Shown here piece after piece: positions 2,426 to 61,614 of a stretch of 64,000 nt of DNA. The first letter of the stretch is position 1. Each line of letters begins with the position of its first letter. This stretch comes from Clostridia bacterium (GTDB lineage: Bacteria > Bacillota > Clostridia > UBA1381): NCBI GenBank assembly GCA_045647245.1, contig JAZRMB010000025.1, positions 12,285 to 76,284 of the forward strand, given 5' to 3'. The translations under genes were made by a program, and so were the position numbers. Below the pieces are notes generated by a model. It was not told the origin of the DNA. It searched no databases and worked only from the letters and a program-made list of their open reading frames with translations.

Positions 2426-2758
2426 CTATATTCCGAGCTTTGAAAGTAATACTGCAAGCTCATAAGCTGATTTATCGCTCACTAAAAGCGGAACGCCTTC
2501 GATATTAGCTTTCTTTTTTGCGTTTTCATCAGGCTCTTGCGAGGCGCAAAGTATTACGCACGCACCTTCTGTAAGAACTGAAACTGCGACGATATTCACG
2601 CTTGTTTGTATGGTAATCCAGACATTTGATTTTTGAATACTGCTCATTGCAAGGCTTAATAAGTCGCCTATATAGCATCCCGAAACATCGAAGTCAAGAC
2701 CGTCCTCGCCTGCCTTTACGGTGAGAGAAAGCTCCTTCACCAAGTCTCTTACTGTCAC
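2426..2758 (-). CDS. DRTGG domain protein
   Basis: 110 aa; YIGDLLS...VWITIQT...VAVSVL pattern resembles DRTGG domains in hydrogenase regulatory clusters. Only gene in the window ending in TAG. Confidence 0.6.
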   Translation of the reverse strand: MTVRDLVKELSLTVKAGEDGLDFDVSGCYIGDLLSLAMSSIQKSNVWITIQTSVNIVAVSVLTEGACVILCASQEPDENAKKKANIEGVPLLVSDKSAYELAVLLSKLGI

Positions 2759-13673: not shown

Positions 13674-13714
13674 TTTAAAGCTTTGGCAAATAGTCCGGGA
13701 TAGAATTTCGGAAA

Positions 13715-13740: not shown

Positions 13741-13775
13741 AGGTCTTCCGGTTGTGTCAGTTCTTGGAGGGTATT

Positions 13776-14420: not shown

Positions 14421-14468
14421 TAATCTTTTTGTGTGTATTTTGGTATGCACTTAAAAAGGAGAAAATAT

Positions 14469-14726
14469 ATGTTATTAGCAAAAGTAAAGGGAGCGGTTGT
14501 CTCCACCAGTAAAAATGAAAAATTGGTAGGCTACAAGCTTTTGATAGCCGAAATTATAGAGAATGACCAATTAACCGGAAGAGAACTTCTTGCGGTTGAT
14601 GGTGTAGGTGCAGGCATTGGCGAGACAGTTATTATAGCCTTGGGCAGTGCGGCAAGATTGGGAGTTGACAGAGCTGATTCGCCGGTAGATGCGGCGATTG
14701 TAGGTATAGTTGACGAGCAGCAGTGA
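14469..14726 (+). CDS. eutN: BMC-P pentameric vertex protein (EutN/CcmL family)
   Basis: MLLAKVKGAVVSTSKNEKLVGYKLLI ... AVDGVGAGIGETVII ... Start at ATG 14469 after aaggag. Confidence 0.9.
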   Translation: MLLAKVKGAVVSTSKNEKLVGYKLLIAEIIENDQLTGRELLAVDGVGAGIGETVIIALGSAARLGVDRADSPVDAAIVGIVDEQQ

Positions 14727-14751
14727 TATGACGAAAGGAGGGAGCACGGTA

Positions 14752-16092: not shown

Positions 16093-16102
16093 GGGTTAGA
16101 GT

Positions 16103-16651: not shown

Positions 16652-16704
16652 TGTAAAAATGGGATGTGAAAGCATCCCTTATTTTATATGACGGAGGTAG
16701 TGTT

Positions 16705-33180: not shown

Positions 33181-33582
33181 TTACAGCGAGCTTCGGTATT
33201 TCCCCGGGGGGATATCCTCGTACTTTTTAAATATTCTTATAAATGTTCTGCTGTCGCTGTAGCCTACCATTCTTGAAATGGTATTTAAGTTATGGTCAGC
33301 AGTATTTAAAAGCTCCTTTGCCTTTTTGATACGGTACTTGTTTATATATTCGTTTATGCCGATTCCGAACTGCTCCTTGAATTTAGTAGAAACATATGAG
33401 CGGCTCATGCCGAGCATATCGGCAATTGACGATACTCCGAGGTTTATGTCGGAATAGTTTTCTTCTATACAATCAAGTATTGAATCTGAAATCTTGTTTG
33501 CCTTACTGCTTGCAAAGCTTTCGGTAACAAGTTTCAGAATATCGGTTATAATAAGATATGATTTCTTCCATATCCTCCTGAT
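33181..33582 (-). pseudogene. AraC-type HTH domain reading frame without a usable start (frameshifted C-terminus of the upstream sensor gene)
   Basis: The frame is open from 33582 to 33181. It encodes ...ILDCIEENYSDINLGVSSIADMLGMSRSYVSTKFKEQFGIGINEYINKYRIKKAKELL...MVGYSDSRTFIRIFKKY, a complete two-HTH AraC domain. The first ATG (33417) lies inside HTH-1. The frame overlaps the last 26 codons of ORF 33503-35479, offset by one nucleotide. Confidence 0.65.
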
Positions 33583-35479
33583 TTATTATGCGGCGCAGAA
33601 TATCATCTATGGATGCAGGAAGTATATCTGTGATGTTTTTCTTATCAAGCAGACTGCCAATAGTGCTCATTATATTGCAGGCTTTTGTTTTGGTCAGTTG
33701 GAGGAATGTAACGTCACTTTCTGAAGATGGCGGAAACAATTCCGAAATAATTGATATAGCGGCATCAAGATTGCCTATTTCAACAAAATTTATAAGCCGC
33801 TGCTCAATTTCGGCTGTGTACTGATATTCTGCCAAAAGTCCCTTTTCCTTCTGCTTTGCATCGCTGTATGTGACAATGCAAGGAGCGTTTTGGTGCTCAT
33901 TGCAGGAAAGAGCACTTTTTGTCTGAATATATGCGAGAGACAGATTATTTGCTCCGACAACAGAGTTGCTTACTGCAAGCTTTAAAAATACTGTAAGCTT
34001 TTGTTCAAAGAAATCACATAAGAATTCACAAAGCTCAATTGTGTTTTTGTATTTTTCTTCGCTGTTTTCGGCAGGGAAGGATATAATAAAGCATATTCCG
34101 CTGTCAAAGTTTACAGTGTGAATTTCAATGTGCAGTACCTCTTTTGCGTATTCTTCGCATACATTTTTTACTGCAAAGAGTATTGTATCGAGCTTTTTAG
34201 CCTCATCCGTATCAGGGGGCATATCGTCAAAGAGTGAATCGTATGAGTCCACAACACAGTTTATTACAAAAAAACCGTTTCCACCGAAGTCTATATTATG
34301 AATTTTAAGGTTGTTTTCTATGACCTTATCGGAAAGGGTACTGCTTGTTAAAAGCTTGGTTAAAAACTCATTTGTGATTATGCGGTTTTGCTGTTCAAGC
34401 TTTGATGTGGCATTTCTGTTTTCCGACTGCATCTTTTCGATTGAATATTTAACTACATCATATTCATTCGCAAGATTATCACTGCTGACGGTATCTCGAA
34501 GTGTGTCGAGTATATTTTCAATCGGTGAATATTGAATTTTTATATACCTTGATATGACGATTATCCCTAAAAGTGCCGTCAGGATAATGACCGCTACGCA
34601 GGTCATATTGAGCGTATTTATATTTTTTGAATATCTGCTGTGCTCGAAAAGACATACAAGCTTATAGTTGTTGTCAAGGTATTTTGTGTTCACATCAAAT
34701 CTCTTATCCTTAAGCTTAATTGAATCCTCGTTACCTGCAAGCTTTAATGTTTCCAAAAGCTTGTTGTCTATGTTAAATGAGGACATTGCAATCCTTTCGT
34801 TCTGGTCAAGCACCGCATATTTAAAATCAATTTTATCCTGGATATTCAATGCTATCGCATTTTCGTTGATGTTTGTAATAAGTGTTGCGGTCGACTGTGC
34901 AGGTCCTGACGGGAATCGGTATATGGAAAGAAGCAGAGATTTTCCTTCACTGCCGGTAAGTCGCACGAAATTGTCACGTCCGGTGCTTATACTGTTAAAC
35001 CAGTCGCTGTATTCGGAGCCGATGTCGATGTTGAATGTATCAAAATAGTTTTTAGGTTGATATACACCGGTGTTTGAAACTATTATATCAAGATTGTTGA
35101 AGTAGATATAAAAGTCATTCTTCGCGGCTATGTTCTGATTATACTTTGATATCTCCTTTGAGAGGGATAAAAAGGTATAATACTCACTTCCCGAGCTGTA
35201 GGATGAAAGATTAAGACAGCTTAGGAATGAGGGAGAGTGTGAAACGAAATTTATATAGCTTGTATTATCGTTTAAAATTGTATTTATATTTTGCGTTACC
35301 GAGCTTATCATCAACTCGTTCTGGTAATCTATATTCTTTTCGGTTATGTTGTTTGAAAGAAAATAGAAGGAGGAGAGAAACACAATCGGTATCAGCAACG
35401 TGGCAACATATGAAACAAGCCATGTTTTTACAATACTTTTTCTGAAAATATCACTTTTTAGTATTTCCTTGAGTTTCAC
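33503..35479 (-). CDS. membrane-anchored extracytoplasmic sensor portion of an AraC-type regulator
   Basis: 658 aa. It has an N-terminal TM helix (TWLVSYVATLLIPIVFLSSFYFL), a roughly 270-aa extracytoplasmic region, a second TM helix (CVAVIILTALLGIIVI), then a cytoplasmic domain. It ends exactly where the AraC HTH frame begins. Confidence 0.7.
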   Translation of the reverse strand: MKLKEILKSDIFRKSIVKTWLVSYVATLLIPIVFLSSFYFLSNNITEKNIDYQNELMISSVTQNINTILNDNTSYINFVSHSPSFLSCLNLSSYSSGSEYYTFLSLSKEISKYNQNIAAKNDFYIYFNNLDIIVSNTGVYQPKNYFDTFNIDIGSEYSDWFNSISTGRDNFVRLTGSEGKSLLLSIYRFPSGPAQSTATLITNINENAIALNIQDKIDFKYAVLDQNERIAMSSFNIDNKLLETLKLAGNEDSIKLKDKRFDVNTKYLDNNYKLVCLFEHSRYSKNINTLNMTCVAVIILTALLGIIVISRYIKIQYSPIENILDTLRDTVSSDNLANEYDVVKYSIEKMQSENRNATSKLEQQNRIITNEFLTKLLTSSTLSDKVIENNLKIHNIDFGGNGFFVINCVVDSYDSLFDDMPPDTDEAKKLDTILFAVKNVCEEYAKEVLHIEIHTVNFDSGICFIISFPAENSEEKYKNTIELCEFLCDFFEQKLTVFLKLAVSNSVVGANNLSLAYIQTKSALSCNEHQNAPCIVTYSDAKQKEKGLLAEYQYTAEIEQRLINFVEIGNLDAAISIISELFPPSSESDVTFLQLTKTKACNIMSTIGSLLDKKNITDILPASIDDILRRIINQEDMEEIISYYNRYSETCYRKLCKQ

Positions 35480-41260: not shown

Positions 41261-44200
41261 TTAAGAAATTATCAACGGCAGTTCTTTCGGCGGCTATGCT
41301 GTGTGCTGCTATGGGCAGCGTGTTTGCCGAAAGTGGTGAGATACCGATAGGTGTCAGTGTTAAATCTGCATCGCCCGCAGTTTCGGACAATCGGCTGTCT
41401 GATGAAAATTCAAATACCAAGTGGTCGGTAAGCGGCAGATGGGATTATGAGATTTTCTCAAATGTTCTTCTTAATATAAAAAAAGACGGCACACACGTTA
41501 AATTTTCACATAGCGGAGCACAATGGGCAAGACCTATGCTTTTTGACGGTATAGGGGACAGCGCAGAGGGAAAGCAATATGAAAATGCGTGGTATGATAC
41601 GGCGAGAAATGCGGACCGTTGGATTGAACTTCAGCTTGACAAGCCTGAGAAGGTAAACAGTCTTTTGTTTACAAGTGCTATGAGTCACAGCAGCTCCGGT
41701 CAGGTTAAAAATCTTATCGTGCAGTATAAAAATCTTGCCGGCGAGTGGATTGATGCATATTCGGTCACAGACAACCTGCAAAAAACGCTGACGTCAACCT
41801 TTGATACGGTGGAGTCTGATTGCTTCAGATTTTATTTCCCTACAACAGAGGCTGTCAGAATAAGAGAAATGAGTCTTTCCTTTGCAAAGGATGAAACCGC
41901 TGATTATGATGTCAGGGAAAATCTTCTTTATACGATACCTGCATCAAAAATCAAGGTGTCCGACGGTGAGATTCCGCTAAAGACAGCTCTTGCAGACGGA
42001 AAACGTGAGAGTGCGGACGGCAACGGAAGCACAAAATGGTTTGTTATTTCGCCGTACGGTACAAGTTATATAGAATATGACCTCGGCTTTAACCACAGCT
42101 TTGACACCCTTCGTGTTACAAGCGGATATGACAGCGGTCTGCAAATTATAGACAGCTATTATCTTATGTACCATGATGGTACGGCGTGGAAGAAGTTAGA
42201 GGGGAGTGAAGTAGTCGGAAACTCAAAAAAGATTTCCGAAATATCATTCAATAAGCTTTCCGCAAGCAAAATAAGAATTGCAACCAACACAAAAAATGCA
42301 TTCAGAATTCAGGAAATAGAGCTGTTTGATTCGGAATATAAAACGCAATATGATATGCCGATAAATCCTGCATATATTGAAGCAGAGACGAACAGCACAA
42401 TAAACACTCTTGTTTTTGAAGGCGACGGAATAAAGAATGTACGGCTTTTCAGTAAAGCTGATACGGCATCCGAATATGAGGCGGTAAGCATAAAAAGAGA
42501 GATATGTTCAGACGGTTTCACATCATACAGCTTTGATGAAACAAAGGGCAAGTATCTCAAAATTGAGTTTTGTTGTGATAATTTCAATCTTTCCGAAATA
42601 AAAGCATACAATACCGATGATATTTTATTTATGAGCAATCCGGAAGTTAGCAATGGCGTGTATGAATTTACATTGCCGACCGGAAAAAGCTTTGATACTG
42701 TAGATATATATTTTGATACCGACATCGCTGCTGAAGCTGATGCAATAATATCGGCAGGCACAGACGGAGTGTATAAAGCTTATAAAGCACTTAACAAAAG
42801 TATCAAAAACGGTTGTATGCATATAGAAACCGGAAGTATAAGTGCCCAAAAGCTTAAGGTTTTCACAAACGGAATGAAGGTTAGTGAAATAAGGGCATAT
42901 GATTCAAAAACTCAAAAAGTACCGGAAGAACAGCCCCCGGCTCTTTATAAAGGCTTTTTTGAGGAATATCCCACAGAGCTTAATATTCAGCCTGAGCTTG
43001 AATTTACCAAAACGCCTGATATTGGTAAATTCAGAGTAGTACCCGATGCAGAAACAAAGGTTACTGTAAATGGTACAAAAGCTGTTATCTCCTTCCCGAA
43101 GGGACTTGAGGGAAACAAAGAATACAAAATATATTATAATAATACTTTAGCGGCAAGCTTTGCTACCTTGCCTCTTGTTGAAGCAATAGGAAAATCTCTG
43201 ACCGATAAAAACGGCATTGCAGTTGCAAAGCTTGTTCCGGGCGGTGAATATACCTTTAAAGCGACAATAAAGAATAACGGACGATATAAGGATAATGCAA
43301 AAAAGGGAAGAGTATATTTTGTTCTTACCGAAAAGCTTTCGGGCAGAATTACGGCTCTTAAATTTGCGCCTTTTGATGTTCAATATCAGAGGGGGCAGGA
43401 AATATCAATTCCCCTTACTGCAAACGATGAAAGCAACGATTTTGCAGTTTATATCTGGGATGATAAAAACTCACCCTATACCGAAAAAATAAGTTTTGAA
43501 AATCTTTATTCGTCAAGTGCAAAGCCGTATGCATATTTTAACCGCAGTGAGTCACCGTATAAGGTGAGGTCACAAAATACAGAGGTTGAAGTTAAGGTTG
43601 CCGAAGAAGGAGATTTTGTTCATATTATATCGGATAGTGAAACAACTGTAGATATCATATATGAAGGAAAAATTTCATCAGCAGTTATAAGACCGCTTTC
43701 AAAGAATGTTGCCTTTGAACAAAATCAAAACACATTAAGCTTTAAGGCAACTCCCGGCAATTACTACAGCGTTGAAATAAACGGAAACGAAACAAGACCA
43801 TTACTTGTTTTCTGTGATAAAAAACAGCCTTTGCCCGAAGGCGATACAATAATTTTTAAAAACGGCGGTACATATGAAGTCGGAAGTTTAAAAATAGGAA
43901 GCGGACAGAACATTTATATAGAAGAAAATGCTGTGGTGCGTGGTAAAATAACAGTCGGGAATGCCGATGGCGTAAAAATTTGCGGCAACGGAACGTTAAT
44001 TGCCGATACCTTCGACCAATGTATTGGTGTTTCAAAATCAAAAAATGTTTACCTTTCGGGTATCACCGCTATGAATTGTGGTGACTGGGGTACGGTATTT
44101 ACCGATTCAGAAAATATACAAATAAATGGTTACAAGCTAATCGGTGCCCAAATGTATTCGGATGGTATCGACCTTGTTAATTGTGTGAATGTCGGAATTG

Positions 44201-44775
44201 ACAATGTGTTTATAAAAAATAACGATGACAGCATCTGTATAAAGCTTCAAGATGGTCACAGCCATAAGGGTTCGGAGAATATTACCGTTGAAAATTCCAC
44301 AATATGGAGCGGTAAGCACGGGAATTCACTTGAAATAGGCTATGAATTAAATGGCGATTATGTAAGAAATGTTACATATAAGAATATAGATGTAATCCAC
44401 CGTGAAATCACAGACTACTCCTTCAGGCGTGCGGCAATTGCCATACATCACGCAGGCAGAGCGGCAGTTTCCGACATAACATACGAGGATATAAGGGTTG
44501 AGGAAACGGACGAAGAGCTTGTGCATATAGAGCTTCTTGACCATGACCAGTTTGGCAGATGCACAGGCTCGGTAAGCAATGTTAATATAAATAATCTTGC
44601 GTATCTCGGGAATTCTGCTAAAAGCACTGTGCGTGACAGCTCTTATGGAGGAAAAGGTCTTGCGGTCACCTTCAAGGGGCTCACAATCGGAGGAAAAACA
44701 ATCACAAATCTTACCGAAGCAAAAAACAACGGCTTTACCGTTTCGGGAACAAATCAAGTGTCATTTATTAAATGA
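41257..44775 (+). CDS. secreted multi-discoidin (F5/8 type C-like) protein with C-terminal right-handed beta-helix glycoside hydrolase domain (GH28-like)
   Basis: Signal peptide ...SVFA-ES. Repeated modules contain NTKW / GNGSTKWFV ... FRIQEIELF. The C-terminal region (about 43504-44775) has YSDGIDLVNC, NNDDSICIK and SGKHGNSLEIGYE motifs of pectin-lyase-fold hydrolases. ATGA overlap with the permease gene. Confidence 0.75.
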   Translation: MIKKLSTAVLSAAMLCAAMGSVFAESGEIPIGVSVKSASPAVSDNRLSDENSNTKWSVSGRWDYEIFSNVLLNIKKDGTHVKFSHSGAQWARPMLFDGIGDSAEGKQYENAWYDTARNADRWIELQLDKPEKVNSLLFTSAMSHSSSGQVKNLIVQYKNLAGEWIDAYSVTDNLQKTLTSTFDTVESDCFRFYFPTTEAVRIREMSLSFAKDETADYDVRENLLYTIPASKIKVSDGEIPLKTALADGKRESADGNGSTKWFVISPYGTSYIEYDLGFNHSFDTLRVTSGYDSGLQIIDSYYLMYHDGTAWKKLEGSEVVGNSKKISEISFNKLSASKIRIATNTKNAFRIQEIELFDSEYKTQYDMPINPAYIEAETNSTINTLVFEGDGIKNVRLFSKADTASEYEAVSIKREICSDGFTSYSFDETKGKYLKIEFCCDNFNLSEIKAYNTDDILFMSNPEVSNGVYEFTLPTGKSFDTVDIYFDTDIAAEADAIISAGTDGVYKAYKALNKSIKNGCMHIETGSISAQKLKVFTNGMKVSEIRAYDSKTQKVPEEQPPALYKGFFEEYPTELNIQPELEFTKTPDIGKFRVVPDAETKVTVNGTKAVISFPKGLEGNKEYKIYYNNTLAASFATLPLVEAIGKSLTDKNGIAVAKLVPGGEYTFKATIKNNGRYKDNAKKGRVYFVLTEKLSGRITALKFAPFDVQYQRGQEISIPLTANDESNDFAVYIWDDKNSPYTEKISFENLYSSSAKPYAYFNRSESPYKVRSQNTEVEVKVAEEGDFVHIISDSETTVDIIYEGKISSAVIRPLSKNVAFEQNQNTLSFKATPGNYYSVEINGNETRPLLVFCDKKQPLPEGDTIIFKNGGTYEVGSLKIGSGQNIYIEENAVVRGKITVGNADGVKICGNGTLIADTFDQCIGVSKSKNVYLSGITAMNCGDWGTVFTDSENIQINGYKLIGAQMYSDGIDLVNCVNVGIDNVFIKNNDDSICIKLQDGHSHKGSENITVENSTIWSGKHGNSLEIGYELNGDYVRNVTYKNIDVIHREITDYSFRRAAIAIHHAGRAAVSDITYEDIRVEETDEELVHIELLDHDQFGRCTGSVSNVNINNLAYLGNSAKSTVRDSSYGGKGLAVTFKGLTIGGKTITNLTEAKNNGFTVSGTNQVSFIK

Positions 44776-44809
44776 AAATAAATTATAAAAAAGGAAAGGA
44801 CGAGGTAAA

Positions 44810-47800
44810 ATGAAAAAAGGTTTTAAAAAGCTGCTTGGAGCAGCACTTTCTGTGGCAATGTTGTCGCAGGGATTAACATTCGCAGTTTCAGCGGAGACGA
44901 CGTATGATTATGATACGTCAAAGAACATATTGTTTGGAATGGACACATCAGCGTCAAGTGTCGTAAACTCAAGAGTTAGCCAAGCTCACAGCTGTAACCG
45001 TAAATCATTAATGGACGGATACAGTGTATCTGCTATTGGAAGTATAGGTACCGGTACTGCGTGGTGTGCACCTGCTGCGGCTGATACTATAACGTATACG
45101 GAATTCAGACTTACTAAGGATTACACTGTTGATGCCGTAGAGGTAACAAGCGGATATCGTGAAGATGTTACGAGTGGAGATCATGAGTACCTTGACTCAT
45201 ATTGGATTGAATACTGGAACGGCTCAGGCTTTGTAAAGGCAGAGGGCAGTGAAGTTACGGGCAATGAAGAGGCTGTATCGGGTGCAACCTTTACGGCTGT
45301 TACAAGTAATAAGTTCAGACTTGTTACAAATACAGATAAAGCTGTAAGAGTAAGAGAGGTAAGACTCTGGCTTGAAGGAACAGTTCCCGAGATTATCGAA
45401 ACTCCGGAAGAGGTAAACCTTATCGGCGGCGTTGCTGTTTCGGATGCATCTCCTGCTGTGGATGCGGCTGTTTTAACAGACGGTTCAAAGGCAAACGGAG
45501 CTGCAGGCTGGACGGTAGGTCTTGGCTATGACTATGATGTGTCACAGAATGCGTTGTTCGGCATGGATATCGCAAACATTACGCTTTCGCACGCATCAAC
45601 AAAAGAGGCAAGAGCGGCACTTGTTGACGGTTACAGCACTAGTGCGCAAGGAAATGCCAGTACAAAATGGTATGTTGACGCAACTGAAGAGAAAAAATAT
45701 GTGGAATTCATACTCAGTAAGGAGTATTATGTTGATGCGGTAAGAATAGCAAACAGCTATAACTACGGCGGCAGTGAGAGACTTGAATCTTTCTATGTTG
45801 AATACTGGAACGGAACTGAGTTTGTAAAGATTGCAGACAGTGAGGTTACCGGTAATGAAGATATTAACGCATACAAGAAATTTACTGTAGTAAAGAGCAA
45901 TAGGTTCAGAGTTGTAACAGAAAGCCCGAAGGTAATGCGTATAAGATAGATTGAGCTTTTCATTGCCGATGTGGACGGATATGATAATACAAATACCGCA
46001 ATTGCGCCTGCATATGTTGTTCTTCCGCTTGCAGAGAAAGAGAATGTATCACACATTGCACTCTACTCAGGCTCGGGTGCGGCAGGTGCATTTGCACAGG
46101 GTATTAACGCAGAAAATGTAAAGGTATATTATAACGACGGTGTATCAACTGACTGGACAGCGGCTAAGGTTGCAAACATCAACACCGTTACGCAGGAAAC
46201 AAACAACCTTACATTAAAGGCACGTCAGATTACATATCTTGAAATTGAGCCTGTTATTGCAAAGAATATCAAGCTTGAAATCCTTGACACAGACTTTACA
46301 CTTCTTGAAACTGAGGTTTACTATGCAGATGCCAATAAGCTGTTCGGTACTGTAGCAACAACAGTTGTTGAAGCAGGCAGTCAGGACTGGGGAAATGCAG
46401 TTGATATGCCGGGCTTTGTTCTTACAGACGGTATTTCAAATAATCCCAACAACATAGGCAAGTGGTATGTCTATAATTCAGACGGTGCACCTTATGCACA
46501 GATGAATTTGAACGGCAAGACAATTGACACTGTTAAAATCTGGTCAGGTAATTCTTCAAGAGCTGAGGTGACTGACACATACAGAACAAAGATTGCATAT
46601 TCCGAGGACGGAGTAAAGTGGACAGAGGCAGATATTAAGAATGTTGAATATTCAAGAAGTGGAAGCACAGAGCTTAAGGACGTTATGACCGTAACAATCG
46701 GCTCTGTAACAGCAAAATTCTTAAGAGTTTATGTTAATTCACAGGAAGCGGCAATAGGTGCACTCAGAATAAAGGAAATTGCGGCATATAACAATGGCTT
46801 AGAGGCTGCAGAGGAGACATTTACAATAGTTTCTGCAAATCTTGACGGAGTAAAGGTTTCTGATATGCAGACAGATGTTGCAAATAGTGCCGACAAGCTT
46901 ACACTTAAGCTTCTTTCAACACCCGATGTTGTTAAGGTGAATGGTAAGAATACAAGCTTTACAACAACTGACGGTACAACAATTGTTGTTGATATGCCGA
47001 GCCTACCATACAACACATGGTTTAATGTAGAGGCAGACGGAATAAGACTTTTGAGCCTTAAGACAATTCCCGAGATTAGTGTTACAAACAAGTCATTTGT
47101 GAAGGCTGAAGGTAATATCATTTTCTACGGAGTGATTACTGACAATGCAGGCGTAGCAACTGATGATGCAAAGCTTATCTTCACAACAGAGAAGGACGGC
47201 GTATTAAACGGTGTTAAGATTGAAGATGTAACATTCGGCACTGAAAACAGCATAATGGTAGCTGACGGAGATAATCCTTCGGTATATCTCTGGGCAATGA
47301 ACACAGTTAAGCCTCTTGCAAAGAAGATTGTAAATTATAATCAGGATGAGGTAGTAGTAGAAGTTAACGAGGAAGGCTTTACAGCATATGTAAAGAATGA
47401 TGCATCAACAGATGCAGAGTACATCGGATACTGGTTCTGCCACGAGGTATCGGAAGCTGCAAACGCAGACCTTTACAGAATTAAGGGCACAAAGCTTTAT
47501 GAAAGACTCGACGATTTTGCGTTTACTCCTGTAAATGATGTAAACATTACATCTAACGGAGAATATGAAATGGCAATTAAAGAGACATCAGGTGACGGTG
47601 CTGACTTTGTCGGTGGCTTCCACGGCGATGAGATTATTGACAGCGTTACAATGACTGTTGATTCAAAAGAGGTTTCACTTTCAGAAAACGGCTTCTACAA
47701 GGGTTCAAGCATTGTGTTTGCACAGAATGCTACAGTAAATGCGAGTGGTACACCTGATTTAAAATTAATTGACCACGAGAAGATTTACACAATCACAAAG

Positions 47801-48223
47801 GACGGAATCAAGCTTAACCAGACAGCAAAATGGCTGAATGATTCAAGTGTATCCGAGGTTTATATGGCTATGCTTCCGGTAAATCACAGAGACGAAAACG
47901 GTGTTCAGATTAACGACACAATAACAGCTGGCTCAACAAGCTACTACAGACCAAGATATTTTGGTGGTGTTAAGTTCAATGTCGGCTATACAAACGCACT
48001 TTCAGTAACTGCATCAGGCGGTGCGCTGGGTGCAAAGGTTGAGGTTACAACAAAGCCTGTTCAGGGCTTTGCCGACAGCGACATTCAGTTCTTTATGTAC
48101 ACAAGAGAAACAAACGATAACAAGGTTTACTTCCGCTCACTGCGTGAAAATAACAATGTATTCGCAGTATCAAAAGGCGAGGTATGGGAAGTAGAGAATA
48201 CTTATAAGGTAACGGTTGAATAA
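44810..48223 (+). CDS. secreted multi-discoidin protein, one reading frame interrupted by an in-frame TAG at 45947-45949
   Basis: ORFs 44810-45949 and 45971-48223 are in the same frame (both coordinates are 2 mod 3). The TAG sits inside the conserved module-end motif: ...FRVVTESPKVMRIR-TAG-IELFIADVDG. Compare FRIQEIELF, FRIMEIQLE and VRVREVRLW in the paralogs. Confidence 0.7.
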
Positions 48224-48330
48224 ATTATAATTTGTGGGGGATATCGGGGACTGGTATGCGACGTTTTGTCCGCAGGATGAAACCAAAGCGTGCCTGTCCC
48301 CACCCCAAATCCCCTGCAAATTATAATTTA
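48222..48330. repeat. A-type element, minimal variant (AAATTATAATTT - GC-rich hairpin - AAATTATAATTT)
   Basis: The 12-bp palindrome occurs at 48222-48233 (overlapping the TAA stop) and at 48318-48329. The core is gtgggggatatcggggac ... gtccccaccccaaatcccc. Confidence 0.75.
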
Positions 48331-48347
48331 CGAAAGGATGGAGATTT

Positions 48348-50996
48348 ATGTTAAAAAAAGCACTTGCGCTTATATTATCAATGACAATGACTACACAGCT
48401 TTTTACACTACCTGTAAAAGCAGAAGGAGAATATGACTATGACGTTACGAAGAACGTCCTTTTTGGGTTGAATCCTTCTAAAGAGAATGTGGTTCTGTCC
48501 AGATGGAATATGGGACAGATGAGCTGGCACAGGTCATGTCTTATTGACGGAATCAGTACATCTGCGAGCGGATGGGAATCAAAAGGCGATGTGTGGTTCT
48601 GTAATACGGGCGATGTGCCGACTACAGCAACATTTAATCTCCCGGATGAGCAATGCGTAGATGCAATCGAGATAACATCGGGTGACCAAAACGGCACCGA
48701 CATACTTTCAGACTTCCATCTTGAATACTGGAACGGCTATGATTTTGTGAAGGTTGAAGGCAGTGAGGTTACGGCAAACAATCAAAAGGTAAGAAGACAG
48801 GAATTTCCCGTTATAAAGAGCAGTAAATTCAGAGTGGTTGTAAATATCCCGAGATTCAGAATATGTGAGGTGTCATTGGAAAGAAGCGACGAAGTGCCTG
48901 CACCTACTCCGACACCTGATGTGACACCAACACCTACTCCGACACCGGGTGGTGACGTTGTGCCGGACGGATATGACTACGATATAACTAAAAACGTTCT
49001 CTTTGGCTCTGATGTATCGATAAATCAGGGCGATTGTCCGTTTCCTGCATCCCTTGCAGACGGAAAGCGTGAGAGCGTTGACGGAAACAGAGATACAAAA
49101 TGGTTTGTCCAGAGTCCGAGCGGTGAGGACTGGGCAGAGTTTATACTTAAAAAGAATCAAACAGTTGCAAAGGCTGTAATATATTCTTTTGGCAGCCAGG
49201 ATCAGGATATAATAGACAGTGGTTGTTTTCAGGTGTTTGCAAACAATGAATGGAGAACAATAGAGGGCAGTGAATTTTCGGAAAATTCAGAGCGTATGAT
49301 TGAGGTTACATTTAACCCGGTAAGAGGAAATCAGTTCAGATTTTTAACAAATACCACAAAGCGTTTCAGAATTATGGAAATTCAGCTTGAAAGCCCTGAA
49401 AGAAAAATGAATTTTGAAAAAACTCAGCAGGGGACAGTTTATGCCCCGGGTGCTGTTAGCGATATATTTTATGCGGAGAACTCAAAGGACTGTGAGGTTA
49501 AGCTGTATATCGATTCTGATGAGATAGAGTATGAGAATGCAGAGGATGATAAATACAGCTTTACGGCTTTGGTTGACAAGGTTGGGGAACACACGTTAAA
49601 AGCCGAAATACTTGTGGATGGAATGATTTGGAATGAGTATTCGGTTACATTCATAATATCCAATATTGATGCTTTATATAATCTGATTACAGTTGATAAG
49701 GACAAGGAAAAAATTGATTCTATCCTTATTAATATGGTGGATGATTTTGCACTGTATGGTAAGGATATTTCGTATTATAAAGAAATGAGCAAGAGTGTAA
49801 GAGATACTCTTATAGACGAGCTTTTAAAGGACTCATCATACGAAAAAGAAACGCTTATTGAAAAGCTTTATGAAAATATGAAAGCAGGCGAGCTTCTTGC
49901 ATACATAAACGGTGCAGAAACAGCAGCCGATATAGAAAAGGCAATCAAGCTTGCAGATAGCCAAAACAGCGGTTTTTCAGAGGATTTTTCACTCCTGTCC
50001 GAAGAAGCAAAACAAAAAATCAGTGATGAAATAGTATCAATCCGTGAAGTTGACGGCGATTTCAGAAACGGTGAGGATTTAATGAATATTCTGCCGTATT
50101 TGCAGGCACTTTATGTTTATGAAAATACATATGCTCTGTCCCTGCCTGAAGTGTTTGAAAGATATAAGGACGTTGCAGAGGTTGACACATCATATATTGA
50201 AAAGGGTATTTATGATGATGTGCTTGAAAGATTAAAGGAAAAGAAGGTTTCGGATTACGGCGATATTCCCACTCTTCTGGATGAAGCATATGACGAAGTG
50301 AAGAAGGAAAACAACAAAGGCTCCGGTGGAGGCTCGGGCGGAGTCGGAGGCGGTGGAGGCGGCGGCTCATCAAAGCCTTCGGGCACAAGCTCCGGCTATG
50401 TTTACACCGCACCGACAGCTTTTGAAAAGGAAGAGGAAAGCTTTGATATAAATAATGAATTTTCTGACCTTGCAGGTTTCTCATGGGCGGAAAAAGCAAT
50501 CGAAAGACTATACCGCGAGGAAATTGTGAGCGGTAAGGCAGAAGGAGAATTCTGCCCGTCTGACTTTGTAAAAAGAGAAGAGTTTGTAAAGATGGTAATG
50601 TGTGCCCTTGATTTTGAAGAGGGTGAGGGAGAGCTCGATTTTGAGGATATAGAAAAAGATAACTGGGCTTATCCGTATCTTCTTTCGGCTGTCAATAAGG
50701 GTATAGTAAGCGGAAAGACTCAAAATACTTTCGGTATGGGCGAATATATCACAAGAGAGCAGATTGCAGTTATTCTTGCAAGAGCGGCAACGTTAAAGGG
50801 TGCAGAGCTGAAAAGCCCAACCGATGAGAAGTTTTCTGATGAGGCTGATATATCGGATTATGCTCTTACCTTTGTCAAGATAATGAAGGCATCGGGTCTT
50901 ATAAGCGGATATGAAGACAATACCTTCAAAGCAAAGAACAACGCTACAAGAGCAGAAGCGGCAGTAATGATAGCAAGACTTTTAGATCTTATATAA
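48348..50996 (+). CDS. secreted discoidin-repeat protein with C-terminal SLH cell-wall anchor
   Basis: Signal peptide ...VKA-EG. Two YDYD..KNVLFG ... TKWF ... FRI.E modules, a PT-rich linker and a Gly-rich linker (GSGGGSGGVGGGGGGGS). Three C-terminal SLH repeats (FSDLAGFSWAEKAI, FEDIEKDNWAYPYL, FSDEADISDYALTF). Confidence 0.8.
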   Translation: MLKKALALILSMTMTTQLFTLPVKAEGEYDYDVTKNVLFGLNPSKENVVLSRWNMGQMSWHRSCLIDGISTSASGWESKGDVWFCNTGDVPTTATFNLPDEQCVDAIEITSGDQNGTDILSDFHLEYWNGYDFVKVEGSEVTANNQKVRRQEFPVIKSSKFRVVVNIPRFRICEVSLERSDEVPAPTPTPDVTPTPTPTPGGDVVPDGYDYDITKNVLFGSDVSINQGDCPFPASLADGKRESVDGNRDTKWFVQSPSGEDWAEFILKKNQTVAKAVIYSFGSQDQDIIDSGCFQVFANNEWRTIEGSEFSENSERMIEVTFNPVRGNQFRFLTNTTKRFRIMEIQLESPERKMNFEKTQQGTVYAPGAVSDIFYAENSKDCEVKLYIDSDEIEYENAEDDKYSFTALVDKVGEHTLKAEILVDGMIWNEYSVTFIISNIDALYNLITVDKDKEKIDSILINMVDDFALYGKDISYYKEMSKSVRDTLIDELLKDSSYEKETLIEKLYENMKAGELLAYINGAETAADIEKAIKLADSQNSGFSEDFSLLSEEAKQKISDEIVSIREVDGDFRNGEDLMNILPYLQALYVYENTYALSLPEVFERYKDVAEVDTSYIEKGIYDDVLERLKEKKVSDYGDIPTLLDEAYDEVKKENNKGSGGGSGGVGGGGGGGSSKPSGTSSGYVYTAPTAFEKEEESFDINNEFSDLAGFSWAEKAIERLYREEIVSGKAEGEFCPSDFVKREEFVKMVMCALDFEEGEGELDFEDIEKDNWAYPYLLSAVNKGIVSGKTQNTFGMGEYITREQIAVILARAATLKGAELKSPTDEKFSDEADISDYALTFVKIMKASGLISGYEDNTFKAKNNATRAEAAVMIARLLDLI

Positions 50997-51017
50997 CTGT
51001 TCGGAAAGGAGAGAACT

Positions 51018-52799
51018 ATGATTAAAAGAATAACAGCCATTTGTATGGCGGCGACAATTGCAGTATCGGCTGTGCCGGTGTTTGCAAAGCCTATATACAA
51101 AAAGGGTGATAACATTGCATCAAAAGCAAAGATTTCGGCATCCGTTATGGGTGGTGACGCAACATCAACGCCACATTGCCTGAACGACGGCGAGGTTCCG
51201 TCTCTGGCTAACGGTTCAACAAAGTGGTTTGTGGTGTCGGGAACAGATGGTGCGTGGGCAGAGTTTACCTTTCCCGAGCCTGTAAATATAAAGGATGCAA
51301 AGGTTCATGGCGGTATGCAAAATGCCGCAGAAAAGGATATTATAGCAGGATTTAAAATCCAGTATTATACCCCCTCGGGTTGGAAGGATGCGGCAGAGGT
51401 TTCTGAAAATGCGGACTTTACCATTCCAGTCAGCTTTGACGGTGTGGTAACAAGTGACCGTTTCAGACTTCTTTCAACATCCAAGGTGAGATTCAGACTT
51501 ACCGAGGTTGAGCTTTATGAGGCTATTGAGAGCGAGGCGGCATCTGAGGGCGGCGATGTAAAGACTATTGAGGATGTGGACGGAAAATATAAAATTCCCG
51601 TTGAAACCGTTCTTAATATCGGACTTTTAGACGGCGAATATGTTTTGAACGATGAAGATATGATAAAGCGTGGTGAGTTTGTAAAGCTCCTTATGGACTT
51701 TATCGGCGAAACACTTCCCGAAAATATGCCAGACAGTATATTTTATGATGTAAAATCGGGAACAGATATTGCAAAATCGATTGCAAGGGCGACAGAGCCT
51801 TCGGCACTTTTAGGCATCACCGACAGACTTATCAGGTACCGCTTATCAAACGGCGAGATTTCTGCGGTGCAGATGCAGGAAAGTGAGCCCGAGAAAGAGC
51901 CTCTTTATCTTAAGGACACAGCGGGTGAATTTGTAAGATATAAGAACGCAAACGGTTATTACGGCACTAACAATGTTTTAAGTGCAAACGGTAACGGCAG
52001 AAATCTTATTCTTACAAGCGATACAATAATATTTAAAACCCTTGTAAACCGTACGGGCGATGAAAAGAAGGATTATGTTGTATTAAGAGGCGGCGGCATA
52101 TTCAACGGAAAATATTCGTCAAAAAGTGCCGAGGTATATAATATAAATACAGACGGTATTCCTGAGGCTATACATTTTAATGAGGAAAAGAGCGCACAGC
52201 AGCTTAGCTTGTCAAGTGCTGTAGGTGTAGTTAAAAAGGTATCAAAAATATATGATACGGTTGAAGAAGAATTGAAGACACATATTACATTCTTGTATAA
52301 CGGCAATGAACTTGAGCTTATAATGGACGAGGATGCGGTGTACAACGGTGCATACAACACATTTGGTGCAGGCTTTGCAGGCGGTGCGGTATACAGTGCC
52401 ATGACACCCGATCAGATTAAAAAGGGCGATGTAATACAGTTTAGTGTTGAGAACGGAAAAATTGTGACCTACAGAATAATTGCCGTTGCATCGGAAAGTG
52501 ATATTACGGGAATACTTCAGCAAACAGGTGGAGACAGACCGGGCGTTATGCCGCTTATTGAAAGTGCATATGGTCATATAGCAAGCTATTCCGATACAAC
52601 AATATCGGTTGATGTGAACGGTACAATTTACACCTATCTCAATGCGTCTCCGAATATCTACATATATTATAAAGACGGCGTTACTGTAGAAAAGGCGGAT
52701 TCAAGCTATATTGTATCAAAGCTCAATGACGGTGTGGGTTCTCGTGTCTTTGTGAGGGTAAGCTCAAAGGCTGTCAGGGATATTATAATATATAAATAA
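51018..52799 (+). CDS. secreted protein with one N-terminal discoidin module
   Basis: Signal peptide ...VFA-KP. ANGSTKWFVVSGTDG ... FRLTEVELYE module. The remaining 400 aa have no motif I can name. Confidence 0.65.
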   Translation: MIKRITAICMAATIAVSAVPVFAKPIYKKGDNIASKAKISASVMGGDATSTPHCLNDGEVPSLANGSTKWFVVSGTDGAWAEFTFPEPVNIKDAKVHGGMQNAAEKDIIAGFKIQYYTPSGWKDAAEVSENADFTIPVSFDGVVTSDRFRLLSTSKVRFRLTEVELYEAIESEAASEGGDVKTIEDVDGKYKIPVETVLNIGLLDGEYVLNDEDMIKRGEFVKLLMDFIGETLPENMPDSIFYDVKSGTDIAKSIARATEPSALLGITDRLIRYRLSNGEISAVQMQESEPEKEPLYLKDTAGEFVRYKNANGYYGTNNVLSANGNGRNLILTSDTIIFKTLVNRTGDEKKDYVVLRGGGIFNGKYSSKSAEVYNINTDGIPEAIHFNEEKSAQQLSLSSAVGVVKKVSKIYDTVEEELKTHITFLYNGNELELIMDEDAVYNGAYNTFGAGFAGGAVYSAMTPDQIKKGDVIQFSVENGKIVTYRIIAVASESDITGILQQTGGDRPGVMPLIESAYGHIASYSDTTISVDVNGTIYTYLNASPNIYIYYKDGVTVEKADSSYIVSKLNDGVGSRVFVRVSSKAVRDIIIYK

Positions 52800-52817
52800 G
52801 GAAGGAGAGTATATGCT

Positions 52818-55010
52818 ATGAAGATAATTAAATTGCTCAGCTGCGCTATAATTGCATTATGTGCGACTGCTTCGGTAGGCTTTGCGAAGGTTGCAGAGTA
52901 TGATATAACGCAAAATCTCCTTTATGATATCCCGATTGAGAATGTTTCAATTTCGGCAGGAACAATCGGAGGCTTCGGACAGAGAATAGACGTACTTTTT
53001 GACGGCAAATTCAATGTGTCGGGTAATGCAGGTACACGCTGGGCGGTAGAAAGCGGAATGCTTGGTGCAAGTATTGAATTTGAGTTTGAAAAGTTTGTAA
53101 CTTTAGACCGTATGCTTATCAAAAACGGATACCCAGGAGAGGGAGAAGAAGGCAAACAAAGACTTTTATCCTTCTCAATGTGGTACTGGGACGGTGCGGA
53201 ATATAAAAAGATTAACTTTATAAACAACAACTCACCGCTTTCGGATACTCATACATTCAGTTTTGATGCTGTCACAACAAATAAAATAAAGATAGTGTCG
53301 GAGCAGAATTCGATATTCAGAATGGTTGAGATTGTAATGCTTGCACCCGGAAGTGAATATGTTGAGGGTACATATGAGTATACACCGAAGAAGAAAATAG
53401 AGATTAAGTATAACAATGCTTTTCTTACCTTTGATAAGGATAAGCCTGAAATGGATAAAAACAGCGGTGTGATGTTTGTTCCTGTTCGTGAGATGAAAAA
53501 GCATCTTGGCTTTACCACAGACTGGATTGATTCCGAAAAGCAGATTGTTATGGAAAACGGAAGCCATAAGGGCGTATTCACAATCGGTAAAAACGTAGGA
53601 ACAATAGACGGCGAAGAGGTTACATTGAGCGCTGTACCGTATCTTAAGGAAAGCCGTGCATATCTGCCGGTAAGAGATTTTGCAAAGGCTTTAGGAGGCT
53701 GTGCAACGTGGTATGACTATGAGAGGGAAATTGACATTATAAGTGAGGAATTTATCCCGAATCTTGCTAAAGAATATATGGGAGAATCACCATTTGCTGT
53801 AGTGGCAGGCGGCGAACAAGAGGTTGTTTATCGTACTGCTAACTGTGATTTTGTGCAAACTGTATCGAATGATCAGCTTGATTTTGAAATAAACTATGAC
53901 GGTAAAATAACATCAGCTGTTTTAAAGCCGTTTTCAAAGGAAATAAAGCCCGAGGTTGTCGGCAATACAGTTAAGTTTACCGCAAAATCGCGTGACCAGC
54001 TTTGTCTTATCATAAACGGCGATAAAAAGTGTCCGCTCTTTATTTCGGTAAATCCCGAAATTGCAAGACCTGAGGATGACGGGAACACACTCTATTTTGA
54101 GGATGAGAAGGTATACCGCCCGGGTATTGTAGAGCTTTCTGACAATCAGACGGTGTATATCGCAAAGGATGTTGTAATAGATGGCGGTTTTGCGTCAAGC
54201 GGAAAGAAGAATATCAAAATCATAGGCCATGGTGTGATTAAAAATCTTTCAAAGAACAGCCTTATTGGAATGGATAACTGTGAGAATGTTACTATTAACG
54301 GACTCACCGTAATAGGTGCCGAGGCGTGGCACAATCCGTGGAACTACTGCAGTAATGTGCTTGCGGAGAACTACAAGATTTTCGGTAGTCTGACCTATTC
54401 TGACGGTATTGATATGGTATCTTGCAATAATGTTACACTCAGAAACATTATGATAAGGAACGAGGATGACGGATTATGCATAAAGCTTGATGGTGATAAA
54501 GGCTCGGAAAATATACTTGCCGAGGATTGCGTAATCTGGAGCGGTGAATCAGGAAACTCCACCGAAATCGGCTATGAACTTGTTGGACCGTACGTAAGGA
54601 ATGTTACATTCCGCAATATCGATGTTATAAACAGAGGAACGAAATCATCAAAGTTCAGACGTTCGGCAATGAGTATCCATAACGCCGGCTATGCAAAGGT
54701 TCACGATATTCTCTATGATAATATCAGAGTTGAAGAAACAGACGAAAACCTCATACATATGGAAAGAATCAGCTATAGTGAATGGGGTGTGTGCGAAGGC
54801 TCTATTGAGGATATTAAGATAGAAAATGTTACATACCTTGACGACAAGATAGTTCCGATTAATATGATTAATGAAGCGGCAGCACCCGGTAAGCACTCGG
54901 TAAGCTTTAAAAACTTAACCTACGGCGGTAAAAAGATAGATTCAATGGATGCATTAAAAGCAAACGGACTTGCAGTATCAGGTGACGTTGAAATCGGATT
55001 TCATGAATAA
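52818..55010 (+). CDS. secreted discoidin + stalk-domain + beta-helix glycoside hydrolase (GH28-like)
   Basis: Signal peptide ...GFA-KV. GNAGTRWAVESG ... FRMVEIVML module. The copper-amine-oxidase-N-like stalk is VPVREMKKHLGFTTDWID...YLPVRDFAKALG. The beta-helix domain has YSDGIDMVSC, NEDDGLCIK and SGESGNSTEIGYE motifs. Confidence 0.75.
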   Translation: MKIIKLLSCAIIALCATASVGFAKVAEYDITQNLLYDIPIENVSISAGTIGGFGQRIDVLFDGKFNVSGNAGTRWAVESGMLGASIEFEFEKFVTLDRMLIKNGYPGEGEEGKQRLLSFSMWYWDGAEYKKINFINNNSPLSDTHTFSFDAVTTNKIKIVSEQNSIFRMVEIVMLAPGSEYVEGTYEYTPKKKIEIKYNNAFLTFDKDKPEMDKNSGVMFVPVREMKKHLGFTTDWIDSEKQIVMENGSHKGVFTIGKNVGTIDGEEVTLSAVPYLKESRAYLPVRDFAKALGGCATWYDYEREIDIISEEFIPNLAKEYMGESPFAVVAGGEQEVVYRTANCDFVQTVSNDQLDFEINYDGKITSAVLKPFSKEIKPEVVGNTVKFTAKSRDQLCLIINGDKKCPLFISVNPEIARPEDDGNTLYFEDEKVYRPGIVELSDNQTVYIAKDVVIDGGFASSGKKNIKIIGHGVIKNLSKNSLIGMDNCENVTINGLTVIGAEAWHNPWNYCSNVLAENYKIFGSLTYSDGIDMVSCNNVTLRNIMIRNEDDGLCIKLDGDKGSENILAEDCVIWSGESGNSTEIGYELVGPYVRNVTFRNIDVINRGTKSSKFRRSAMSIHNAGYAKVHDILYDNIRVEETDENLIHMERISYSEWGVCEGSIEDIKIENVTYLDDKIVPINMINEAAAPGKHSVSFKNLTYGGKKIDSMDALKANGLAVSGDVEIGFHE

Positions 55011-57588: not shown

Positions 57589-57599
57589 TTTGGTTTGAT

Positions 57600-57682
57600 A
57601 AAATCGCCCACAGCGCCTTTCGCAGAGACTCGGAGTATCAGCATACACCTTCGTCTCTTTAAAATGCACTGTGAACGATTTT
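57600..57682. repeat. B-type palindromic intergenic element, copy 2
   Basis: AAAATCGCCCACAGCG ... GCACTGTGAACGATTTT with the inner stem agagac...gtctct. Confidence 0.7.
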
Positions 57683-57763
57683 CTCTGCACCAAATACGTT
57701 GGAATTTACAGTTTGCAAAATGGCAGTCTGAAAAAAATTATCTGTGCTTCAAGCTAAGCGGAA

Positions 57764-57908
57764 AAAATCGCTCCGTTTTCGGTTCGGGGCGGTACTGCTA
57801 ATGATTACAATCGGCAGAGCCGATTGCACTAATTCGATTATCCAAATCGAAGATTTGGAATCTCATTGAGCAGCACCCTCGTCGAGAAACAGAACTGTGA
57901 ACGATTTT
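57764..57908. repeat. B-type palindromic intergenic element, copy 3 (longer, nested hairpins)
   Basis: AAAATCGCTCCG ... AACTGTGAACGATTTT termini. Inner hairpins are aatcgg-cagag-ccgatt and ccaaatc-gaag-gatttgg. The 3' flank ctctgc matches copy 2. Confidence 0.6.
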
Positions 57909-57979
57909 CTCTGCGTTTCAAGCCAACGTAGGATTCACTATTCATTTTTTCATTATTATAAGAAAGGGAGTTAATTTAA

Positions 57980-59696: not shown

Positions 59697-61049
59697 ATGG
59701 CATTTGAAAATCTCGGCGATAAGCTGCAGGAGGTCTTTAAGGGACTTACCTCTAAGGGAAAGCTTACCGAAAAGGACATAAAAACAGCGATGCGTGAGGT
59801 TAAGCTTGCACTTTTGGAGGCGGATGTTAACTTCAAGGTTGTTAAAGACTTTGTAGCATCGGTATCCGAAAAGGCTCTTGAAGCAGGTGTTTTGGAGTCA
59901 TTGACACCCGGACAGAATGTTATAAAGGTAGTAAGAGACGAGCTTACCGTTTTAATGGGGTCGGAGAATGAAAGACTGAACTTTTCAAACAATCCTCCAA
60001 CCGTTATTATGCTCTGCGGTTTGCAGGGTGCAGGTAAAACGACAGCCTGCGGAAAGCTTGCACTTTCGCTTCGTAAGCAGTTTGATAAAAGACCGCTTAT
60101 GGTAGCGTGTGACGTTTACAGACCTGCCGCTGTTAAACAGCTTGAGGTTTTGGGCTCGCAGATAAATGTGCCGGTATTTTCTAAAGGTATAGCCGCAAAT
60201 CCGGTTGAAATTGCAAAGGAAGCCTTAGCACATGCACGTCAGCACGGGAATGACCCGGTTATCATAGATACTGCAGGTAGACTTCATATTGATGAAGAGC
60301 TTATGCAGGAGCTTAAAAATATAAAGGCAGAAACAAAGCCGAATGAAATACTTCTTGTTGTCGATGCGATGACAGGTCAGGATGCGGTTAACGTATCGGA
60401 AAGCTTTAACAACGAGCTTGATGTTACGGGTATCATCCTTTCAAAGCTTGACGGTGACACAAGAGGCGGTGCGGCACTTTCTGTAAAGGCTGTTACAAAC
60501 AAGCCGATAAAGTATGCATCAATGGGTGAGAAGCTGTCTGATTTGGAGCTTTTCCATCCCGAAAGAATGGCAAGCAGAATTTTGGGAATGGGTGATGTGC
60601 TTACCCTTATAGATAAAGCTCAGGATATAGTTGATGAGAAGGAAGCGGCACTTTTAGAGAAAAAGATGCGTGAGCAGAGCTTCGACTTAGAGGACTTTTT
60701 AACACAGCTTCAAAGTATTAAAAAGCTCGGTTCTATAAGTCAGATTCTCGGAATGCTTCCCGGAATAGATAAAAAGATAATGGAACAGGTTGACCCGGAG
60801 GAAAGTGAAAAGAGATTAAAGCGTACAGAAGCGATAATTCGTTCAATGACGCCGGAGGAGCGAAGAAAGCCGCAGATAATTGCTGCAAGCCGCAAGGTAA
60901 GAATTTCAAAAGGAAGCGGTACAAGGGTTCAGGATGTAAATGAGCTTTTGAAGCAGTTTGAACAGATGCGAAAGATGATGAAGGAATTATCCGGCCCCAG
61001 ACAGGCGAAATTGATGAAGCGTCTGAAGAAGTTTGGCGGCAAAATGTGA
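59697..61049 (+). CDS. ffh: signal recognition particle protein Ffh
   Basis: 450 aa with GLQGAGKTT, DTAGRL and the Met-rich M domain. Confidence 0.95.
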   Translation: MAFENLGDKLQEVFKGLTSKGKLTEKDIKTAMREVKLALLEADVNFKVVKDFVASVSEKALEAGVLESLTPGQNVIKVVRDELTVLMGSENERLNFSNNPPTVIMLCGLQGAGKTTACGKLALSLRKQFDKRPLMVACDVYRPAAVKQLEVLGSQINVPVFSKGIAANPVEIAKEALAHARQHGNDPVIIDTAGRLHIDEELMQELKNIKAETKPNEILLVVDAMTGQDAVNVSESFNNELDVTGIILSKLDGDTRGGAALSVKAVTNKPIKYASMGEKLSDLELFHPERMASRILGMGDVLTLIDKAQDIVDEKEAALLEKKMREQSFDLEDFLTQLQSIKKLGSISQILGMLPGIDKKIMEQVDPEESEKRLKRTEAIIRSMTPEERRKPQIIAASRKVRISKGSGTRVQDVNELLKQFEQMRKMMKELSGPRQAKLMKRLKKFGGKM

Positions 61050-61112
61050 TATATAAGCTACGTGCTTTTATATAAATAAATTTTAGAAAATAATTTATGG
61101 AGGTGAATCATA

Positions 61113-61355
61113 ATGGCAGTTAAAATCAGACTTAGAAGAATGGGTGCAAAGTAGGCTCCTTTCTATAGAGTTGTAGTTGCAGATTCAAGATATCCCAGAG
61201 ACGGTAGATTTATCGAAGAGATCGGAACATACAATCCGCTTACAGATCCCGCTACCGTAAACATTGATGCTGATCTTGCAAAGAAGTGGATTGGCAACGG
61301 CGCTCAGCCTACCGATACGGTAAAGGCTCTTTTGAAGAAGCAGGGAATTATGTAA
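61113..61355 (+). CDS. rpsP: 30S ribosomal protein S16 with an in-frame TAG at codon 14
   Basis: [45 protein letters not shown]... RBS ggaggtg lies upstream. Not in the ORF track because the TAG (61152-61154) splits it below the length cutoff. Confidence 0.85.
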
Positions 61356-61386: not shown

Positions 61387-61614
61387 ATGAAAGAGGTATT
61401 AGAGCTGATTGCGAAGGCTTTGGTTGACGACGTTGATGCTGTATCCGTAACTGAGGTTGAGGGCGAGCAGTCCGTTATACTTGAGCTTCGTGTAGCTGAA
61501 GGAGATATGGGCAAGGTAATCGGAAAGCAGGGCAGAATTGCAAAGGCAATCCGTACTGTTGTCAAAGCAGCCGCAAGCCGTGAGGACAAGCGTGTTGTAG
61601 TAGAGATTATTTAA
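61387..61614 (+). CDS. KH-domain RNA-binding protein (YlqC family)
   Basis: 75 aa; GKVIGKQGRIAKAIRTVV GXXG KH motif; conserved position between rpsP and rimM. Confidence 0.85.
   Translation: MKEVLELIAKALVDDVDAVSVTEVEGEQSVILELRVAEGDMGKVIGKQGRIAKAIRTVVKAAASREDKRVVVEII

Follow-up and report, generated by a model that had tools for sequence, protein, structure and literature searches.

In the model bacteria tested in this respect, the gene for bS16, rpsP, is essential and occurs as a single copy. Near-cognate read-through of a stop codon, at well under a few percent, is insufficient for a stoichiometric ribosomal protein. In the window analyzed here, a 64,000-nucleotide stretch of one contig from a Clostridia bacterium, rpsP is broken at its fourteenth codon by an in-frame TAG. 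The locus raises the question of whether this TAG belongs to the organism's working gene and, if it does, how the gene is expressed.

The interrupted rpsP gene and codon 14 in relatives

The gene and its neighbors are arranged as follows, where L081 is an ENA contig from a related species:

59697..61049, forward strand: ffh (SRP54), intact, 450 aa, TGA stop; Pfam SRP54_N, SRP54 and SRP_SPB (precomputed for P0001)
61099..61105, forward strand: Shine-Dalgarno sequence GGAGGTG, 7 nt 5' of the rpsP ATG
61113..61355, forward strand: rpsP (bS16), 80 codons plus a TAA stop, broken at codon 14
61152..61154, forward strand: in-frame TAG at rpsP codon 14; AAG or AAA (Lys) in relatives, the T at 61152 being the sole difference
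61387..61614, forward strand: KH-domain protein (KhpA-like), intact, 75 aa; PF13083
61704..62204, forward strand: rimM, intact; product 93% identical to RimM of L081
62201..62947, forward strand: trmD, intact; product 94% identical to TrmD of L081

Translation of the window reproduced the TAG that a sequence-only reading of this DNA had reported at 61152-61154, and it placed the true stop of the gene, a TAA, at 61353-61355. The encoded S16 is homologous to bS16 over its full length and is 94-96% identical over 80 residues to the intact S16 of L081, L001, L002, and L085; the orthologues are annotated as PF00886. The other properties attributed to the gene in that reading were also recovered. 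Specifically, the ribosome-binding site is a good one and occurs in the related contigs L082 and L083 as well, and the ffh-rpsP-KH-rimM-trmD operon was borne out by orthology to annotated relatives. The absence of a restart likewise held: the only in-frame start-type codons 3' of the TAG are a TTG at codon 73 and an ATG at codon 80, and thus no usable restart exists. The gene is bona fide in all respects but one: under the standard bacterial code, its frame is interrupted at codon 14. A recoding RNA structure 3' of the TAG was considered and rejected, as nothing unusual was found there (z = −1.9) and the same sequence is present in AAG-bearing relatives.

The ancestral residue had been taken to be Lys, with a single substitution leading from AAG to TAG. 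Indeed, position 14 of S16 is Lys in approximately 73 of 79 GTDB relatives, Arg in two, and Gly in three. The reading had also proposed examining the same codon in related genomes; in the closer relatives (L081, L085-L089, and L090-L099) it is AAG or AAA throughout, with no TAG, and only the T at 61152 sets the window apart. The same base was found in metagenomic data. In eight rumen or gut runs, every contig covering 61152 reads A. In four of these, DNA or RNA runs, A accounts for 100% of the contig depth at this position; the other four, rumen metatranscriptomes, include a 244-nt RNA contig that reads A and is 98% identical to the rpsP of the window. This contig differs from the window at 4 of 226 positions, one of which is 61152; over the same length, L081 differs at 8 of 226. 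The TAG allele was absent from all 99 fetched loci, and the degenerate pattern M-G-A-K-TAG-A-P-F-Y gave no match in 185,579 GTDB genomes or in JGI metagenome contigs. The rpsP TAG is private to one contig.

The strain itself was not found in public runs: the share of words in common was at most 0.26 for the conserved kilobase and at most 0.07 for 8.8 kb, and there was none for the surface-protein gene described below. The proteins of the window occur on one 81,222-bp contig only, so the base at 61152 is unreplicated; an exact-protein look-up returned no other records for Ffh and TrmD. Among GTDB species representatives, Clostridia MAGs with Ffh identities of 85% and 80% come closest. The nearest sequences overall are L081 (Ffh 96% identical in amino acids, DNA approximately 89%) and the short contigs L082 and L083 (Ffh 98%). 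The latter two were rejected as members of the same species, as their DNA is only approximately 91% identical; both break off shortly ahead of codon 14. An apparent match of approximately 99% in the rumen metatranscriptomes X7 and X14-16 was rejected, since the similarity covers only the conserved part of rpsP/KH and is absent from pta, ackA, and ffh.

The quality of the contig was evaluated at conserved positions. At columns that are otherwise unchanged among 44 Ffh sequences, the Ffh of the window carries no private substitution. YlxM, RimM, and TrmD have none either, and the only such change in S16 is K14 to TAG, for a total of approximately 1,050 codons including Ffh; the power of this test is limited, in that 50 errors per 64 kb would still give zero approximately 40% of the time. 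Within that power, a generally noisy contig with errors of the long-read style was unsupported. The length of the contig, 81 kb, points to reasonable coverage, and few substitution errors would be expected at such depth.

A stretch of approximately 60-70 nt of rpsP around the TAG is nearly identical among many co-occurring species, and contig depth at the site jumps from 6-9x to 10^3-10^4x. The 21-mers spanning 61152 are common to 4-7 other loci when they carry A and unique when they carry T. Contigs L082, L083, and L084, from related species, end at window-equivalent positions 61141-61147, some 10 nt or less from the TAG and within the first 35 nt of rpsP. That three independent contigs end here identifies the ultra-conserved stretch as a recurrent assembly breakpoint.

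Use of TAG across the window

Four further features bear on how TAG is used in this DNA and on the lesions that the contig carries:

44810..48223, forward strand: surface protein, secreted, 1137 aa, F5/8 type C domains; carries the second in-frame TAG
45947..45949, forward strand: second in-frame TAG, codon 380; conserved Glu (GAG/GAA) in paralogous F5/8 type C domains
33181..35479, reverse strand: gene for an AraC-type regulator, disrupted by a +1 frameshift; one additional T in the coding strand at approximately 33549-33551
2426..2428, reverse strand: sole apparent TAG terminator, at the end of a 110-aa protein (2426-2758), with a TGA 10 codons further on as the following stop in this frame

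The second TAG corresponds to the one that had been noted within 16 kb of the first. Its residue was read from paralogous domains within the window rather than from orthologues: the nearest such domain has KAVRVR-E(GAG)-VRLW where the TAG-bearing copy has KVMRIR-TAG-IELF, and two other copies also have Glu. On this basis, the second TAG stands for Glu. Contigs of relatives are collinear across the site but too divergent there for the residue to be read, and the 416-aa stretch spanning the TAG had no homologue at E ≤ 1e-10 in a database of 5.8 billion proteins except its own 379-aa fragment. The gene is part of a cluster of large secreted proteins (41257-55010) with F5/8 type C, GH28 pectinase-like, SLH, and Cu_amine_oxidN1 domains.

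In the regulator gene, where TATATA has become TATTATA, a 658-aa open reading frame is detached from the C-terminal HTH portion; L081 has an intact orthologue of 764 aa. Either the gene is a genuine pseudogene or the sequence is in error here. As the frameshift is unrelated to TAG, the contig bears gene-disrupting lesions of more than one kind.

No gene in the window contains an in-frame TAA or TGA. Other in-frame TAGs, in the open reading frames of 13683-16651, lie 5' of the true start codons and were hence rejected as spurious. This leaves two genes out of 57 with one sense TAG each, against a total of 18,610 codons. By the codon usage of the genome, TAG makes up 39% of single-step nonsense outcomes, and two of two lesions would be TAG by chance with a probability of approximately 0.39^2 = 0.15.

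TAG is also scarce as a terminator, ending one of 57 genes in the window, as compared to 38 for TAA and 19 for TGA. Near relatives end 8 of 68 or 15 of 107 called genes with TAG (12-14%; Fisher p = 0.03 and 0.007, respectively, versus the window), and across all 80 related loci the count is 225 of 1148 (approximately 20%). In individual sister species, 2 of 22, 2 of 10, 1 of 19, and 3 of 17 called genes end at TAG. The binomial p for the scarcity in the window is 0.002-0.03, and a beta-binomial model with lineage variation gave P(≤1/57) = 0.004, or 0.016 if GC-matched, for a test that is post hoc and uses ORF-based gene calls for the window. A value of approximately 5e-5, obtained against all 80 loci, was rejected as too optimistic, since near relatives and lineage heterogeneity give 0.004-0.03. 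A compositional cause was also rejected: the TAG trinucleotide is as frequent overall as in relatives, so the scarcity of TAG terminators is not due to composition. Among 46 standard-code loci with at least 14 genes, three had no TAG stop.

A reassigned codon would be expected to have many sense uses over many conserved genes, to stand for one consistent residue, to be a trait of its lineage, and to be lost as a terminator. In the window, the sense uses number two, in 2 of 57 genes, and these two sites correspond to Lys in S16 and Glu in the F5/8 type C domain. The relatives carry AAG at codon 14 and use TAG stops, and the one terminator that remains among 57 genes compares to the 12-14% of near relatives. 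Pyrrolysine (Pyl) would be expected at TAG codons of mtmB, mtbB, or mttB, and the TAGs found here are in rpsP and a surface-protein gene, with no such methyltransferase gene in the window. The 64-kb window holds no tRNA gene and no gene for Pyl, a release factor, an aminoacyl-tRNA synthetase, or a methylamine methyltransferase, and it gave no match to Rfam families. In the literature that was searched, recoding of TAG was confined to phages, Pyl systems, and E. coli strains engineered for it, and there was no natural free-living bacterium with a reassigned TAG. To our knowledge, no cellular bacterium reads TAG as a standard sense codon.

Explanations for the TAG codon

The options named in the sequence-only reading (an error, a second copy, or decoding of TAG) are still the right ones, except that insertion of Pyl at a Lys position is not supported. 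We judge, with only a little more confidence than doubt, that the T at 61152 is not the base of the organism's working rpsP, being wrong or non-representative. It would probably be an error of consensus or assembly, or else a read variant that is not representative, and would have become fixed in one metagenomic contig that nothing replicates; codon 14 would in reality be AAG, encoding Lys, and S16 would be made normally. Since the T makes the spanning k-mers unique, an error-bearing path could have let a small-k assembler cross the shared rpsP stretch and carry the contig on where those of relatives break. This bridging route is a conjecture, as the assembler and read type of the contig are not known, and it weakens at large k or high coverage. 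That the two TAGs replace different residues fits random nonsense changes rather than a clean reassignment to one amino acid. The second TAG and the frameshift both affect dispensable genes; they may have arisen through similar errors, or else the two genes may be true pseudogenes. An artefact is favored by the fact that the base is wholly unreplicated, by the occurrence of more than one type of lesion, by the replacement of two different residues, and by base rates; the cleanness of the contig, the identity of both nonsense lesions as TAG, and the scarcity of TAG terminators are left unexplained by it. The TAG-specific signal is modest and post hoc, with a joint p of roughly 10^-3, and our overall interpretation leans to an artefact.

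A real T in a gene for an essential, stoichiometric protein would require efficient translation and hence a suppressor tRNA, loss of RF1, or both. This possibility, which we hold to be doubtful but worth serious consideration, is that an efficient amber suppressor tRNA-CUA, mutated or acquired and possibly accompanied by weak or lost RF1, represents an early stage of TAG capture. Read-through would have selected for replacement of TAG stops by TAA or TGA, and new TAGs would drift in where the inserted residue is tolerated, among them those at Lys14 of S16, a position that accepts Arg or Gly in some relatives, and at a Glu of the surface protein. One cause would then explain why both nonsense lesions are TAG and why TAA and TGA are never found in frame. 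The depletion of TAG terminators beyond what composition accounts for, the clean conserved sites of the contig, and the otherwise perfect conservation of rpsP, with its ribosome-binding site and operon, would be accounted for by the same cause. Non-canonical tRNAs, including those of the amber-suppressor type, have reportedly been found in Clostridia (PMC5389517). Against it stand the alignment of the two TAGs with different conserved residues, the small number of sense TAGs, the gene at 2426-2758 that still ends in TAG, the occurrence of standard-code lineages nearly devoid of TAG stops, and the lack of a tRNA-CUA or any other component within 64 kb. Precedent in cellular bacteria was likewise lacking in the literature searched. 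Timing is a further difficulty. As AAG is found in relatives with up to 98% rpsP identity, and sisters at 89-91% nucleotide identity terminate genes at TAG, the gain of the suppressor, the nearly complete purge of TAG stops, and the fixation of TAG in rpsP would all have to be very recent. Approximately 10% of terminators would have been purged within approximately 10% divergence from standard-code sisters.

It is very improbable that the TAG is real and this rpsP copy null, with survival through a second intact rpsP or low-level near-cognate read-through. Only 64 kb of the genome is visible, and the frameshift and the surface-protein TAG show that other genes on the contig are broken. However, the canonical operon, the intact ribosome-binding site, and the absence of other decay make this copy look like the functional one; the essentiality and single-copy status of rpsP in model bacteria and the low level of near-cognate read-through also argue against a null. 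We find it scarcely credible that the TAG encodes Pyl through a pylTSBCD system. TAG is the Pyl codon, and some Firmicutes use Pyl. Nevertheless, the second TAG replaces Glu rather than Lys, the window holds no pyl gene, methylamine methyltransferase gene, or tRNA, no structure was found downstream of the rpsP TAG, and the microcompartment locus of the window is of an aldolase/aldehyde-dehydrogenase type unrelated to trimethylamine. The Pyl use known to us is confined to a few methyltransferase genes and never involves ribosomal proteins.

Known systems resemble the locus in different respects. Like the sequence-error pseudogenes of drafts and MAGs, it has a single-base lesion in a conserved essential gene of one assembly, the ancestral base in relatives, and a second type of lesion, a frameshift, on the same contig. 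Unlike the usual examples, the rpsP lesion is a substitution rather than a homopolymer indel, conserved sites elsewhere on the contig are clean, and both nonsense lesions are TAG in a window nearly devoid of TAG stops. Gut phages that read TAG as Gln (code 15), such as Lak megaphages and some crAss-like phages, resemble the window in habitat (gut or rumen), in having in-frame TAGs within intact genes, and in avoiding TAG terminators. Those phages have hundreds of sense TAGs, mostly at Gln positions, and usually their own suppressor tRNA, whereas the window is ordinary bacterial chromosome, with glycolysis genes, the ffh operon, and a microcompartment locus; its two TAGs fall at a Lys and a Glu position, and it contains no tRNA gene. 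Bacteria and archaea that use Pyl also read UAG as an amino acid, and some under-use TAG stops; they differ from the window in inserting Pyl at set sites of methylamine methyltransferases by means of pylTSBCD. Amber-suppressor and RF1-deficient E. coli (supE/supF and C321.deltaA-type strains) provide the mechanism that a translated TAG would need: with a tRNA-CUA, loss of RF1, or both, TAG becomes readable, TAG stops become costly, and ambers in essential genes are tolerated. Such strains are engineered or laboratory-selected, and the literature searched contained no natural free-living case. By analogy, the TAG, if real, would act like those of such strains rather than like phage code 15.

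If the T is an artefact, the locus provides a worked example of how a base that breaks an essential gene can enter a clean MAG contig where many species share sequence, and annotation pipelines should flag such sites instead of calling a pseudogene. If it is true, it would be the first natural sense use of TAG in a cellular bacterium outside Pyl, at approximately 10% nucleotide divergence from standard-code sisters. The 'codon capture' and 'ambiguous intermediate' models would become directly testable, and the case would bear on the interplay of TAG-recoded gut phages with their hosts.

Other features of the window

The window is ordinary chromosome of an uncultured ruminant-gut Clostridia bacterium, with 41% G+C. 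It has words in common with runs from bovine, sheep, and other gut metagenomes. Its gene content includes pgk-tpi-gpmI, thyA-folA, parB-rsmG, pta-ackA, a [FeFe]-hydrogenase-like sensor cluster, a bacterial microcompartment (BMC) locus, ABC sugar transporters, and the GH28/F5/8/SLH surface-protein cluster. The tetranucleotide CTAG is nearly absent, at 0.03 per kb in the window and 0 in several relatives; this avoidance is clade-wide (window and L081-L089).

The KH protein encoded downstream of rpsP has exact 75-aa matches on 23 further contigs, with DNA identities to the window of only 78-89%. Complete identity of the protein at this level of DNA divergence points to extreme purifying selection on a small RNA-binding protein. 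These contigs were considered as candidates for the same species and rejected, as their nucleotide identities place all of them in other species.

The BMC locus, at 7650-17478, encodes a class II aldolase, an aldehyde dehydrogenase, a Zn-dependent alcohol dehydrogenase, five BMC shell proteins, PduL, and EutN. It also encodes a fusion of a PduO-type adenosyltransferase with an HbpS-like domain, together with a DeoR regulator and an RnfC-like Fe-S protein. The locus is of the aldolase type (fucose/rhamnose-like) and not of the choline/TMA type.

The spacer between pta and ackA (57589-57979) is 392 nt long in the window and 105 nt in L081; RNA contigs of relatives have 249 letters in this region where the window has 575. 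The extra DNA includes three copies of a unit of approximately 28 nt (…CTGTGAACGATTTTCTCTGC) with inverted partners and, judged from these repeats, resembles a small palindromic repeat element. The open reading frame at 57595-57801 (68 aa) is probably spurious.
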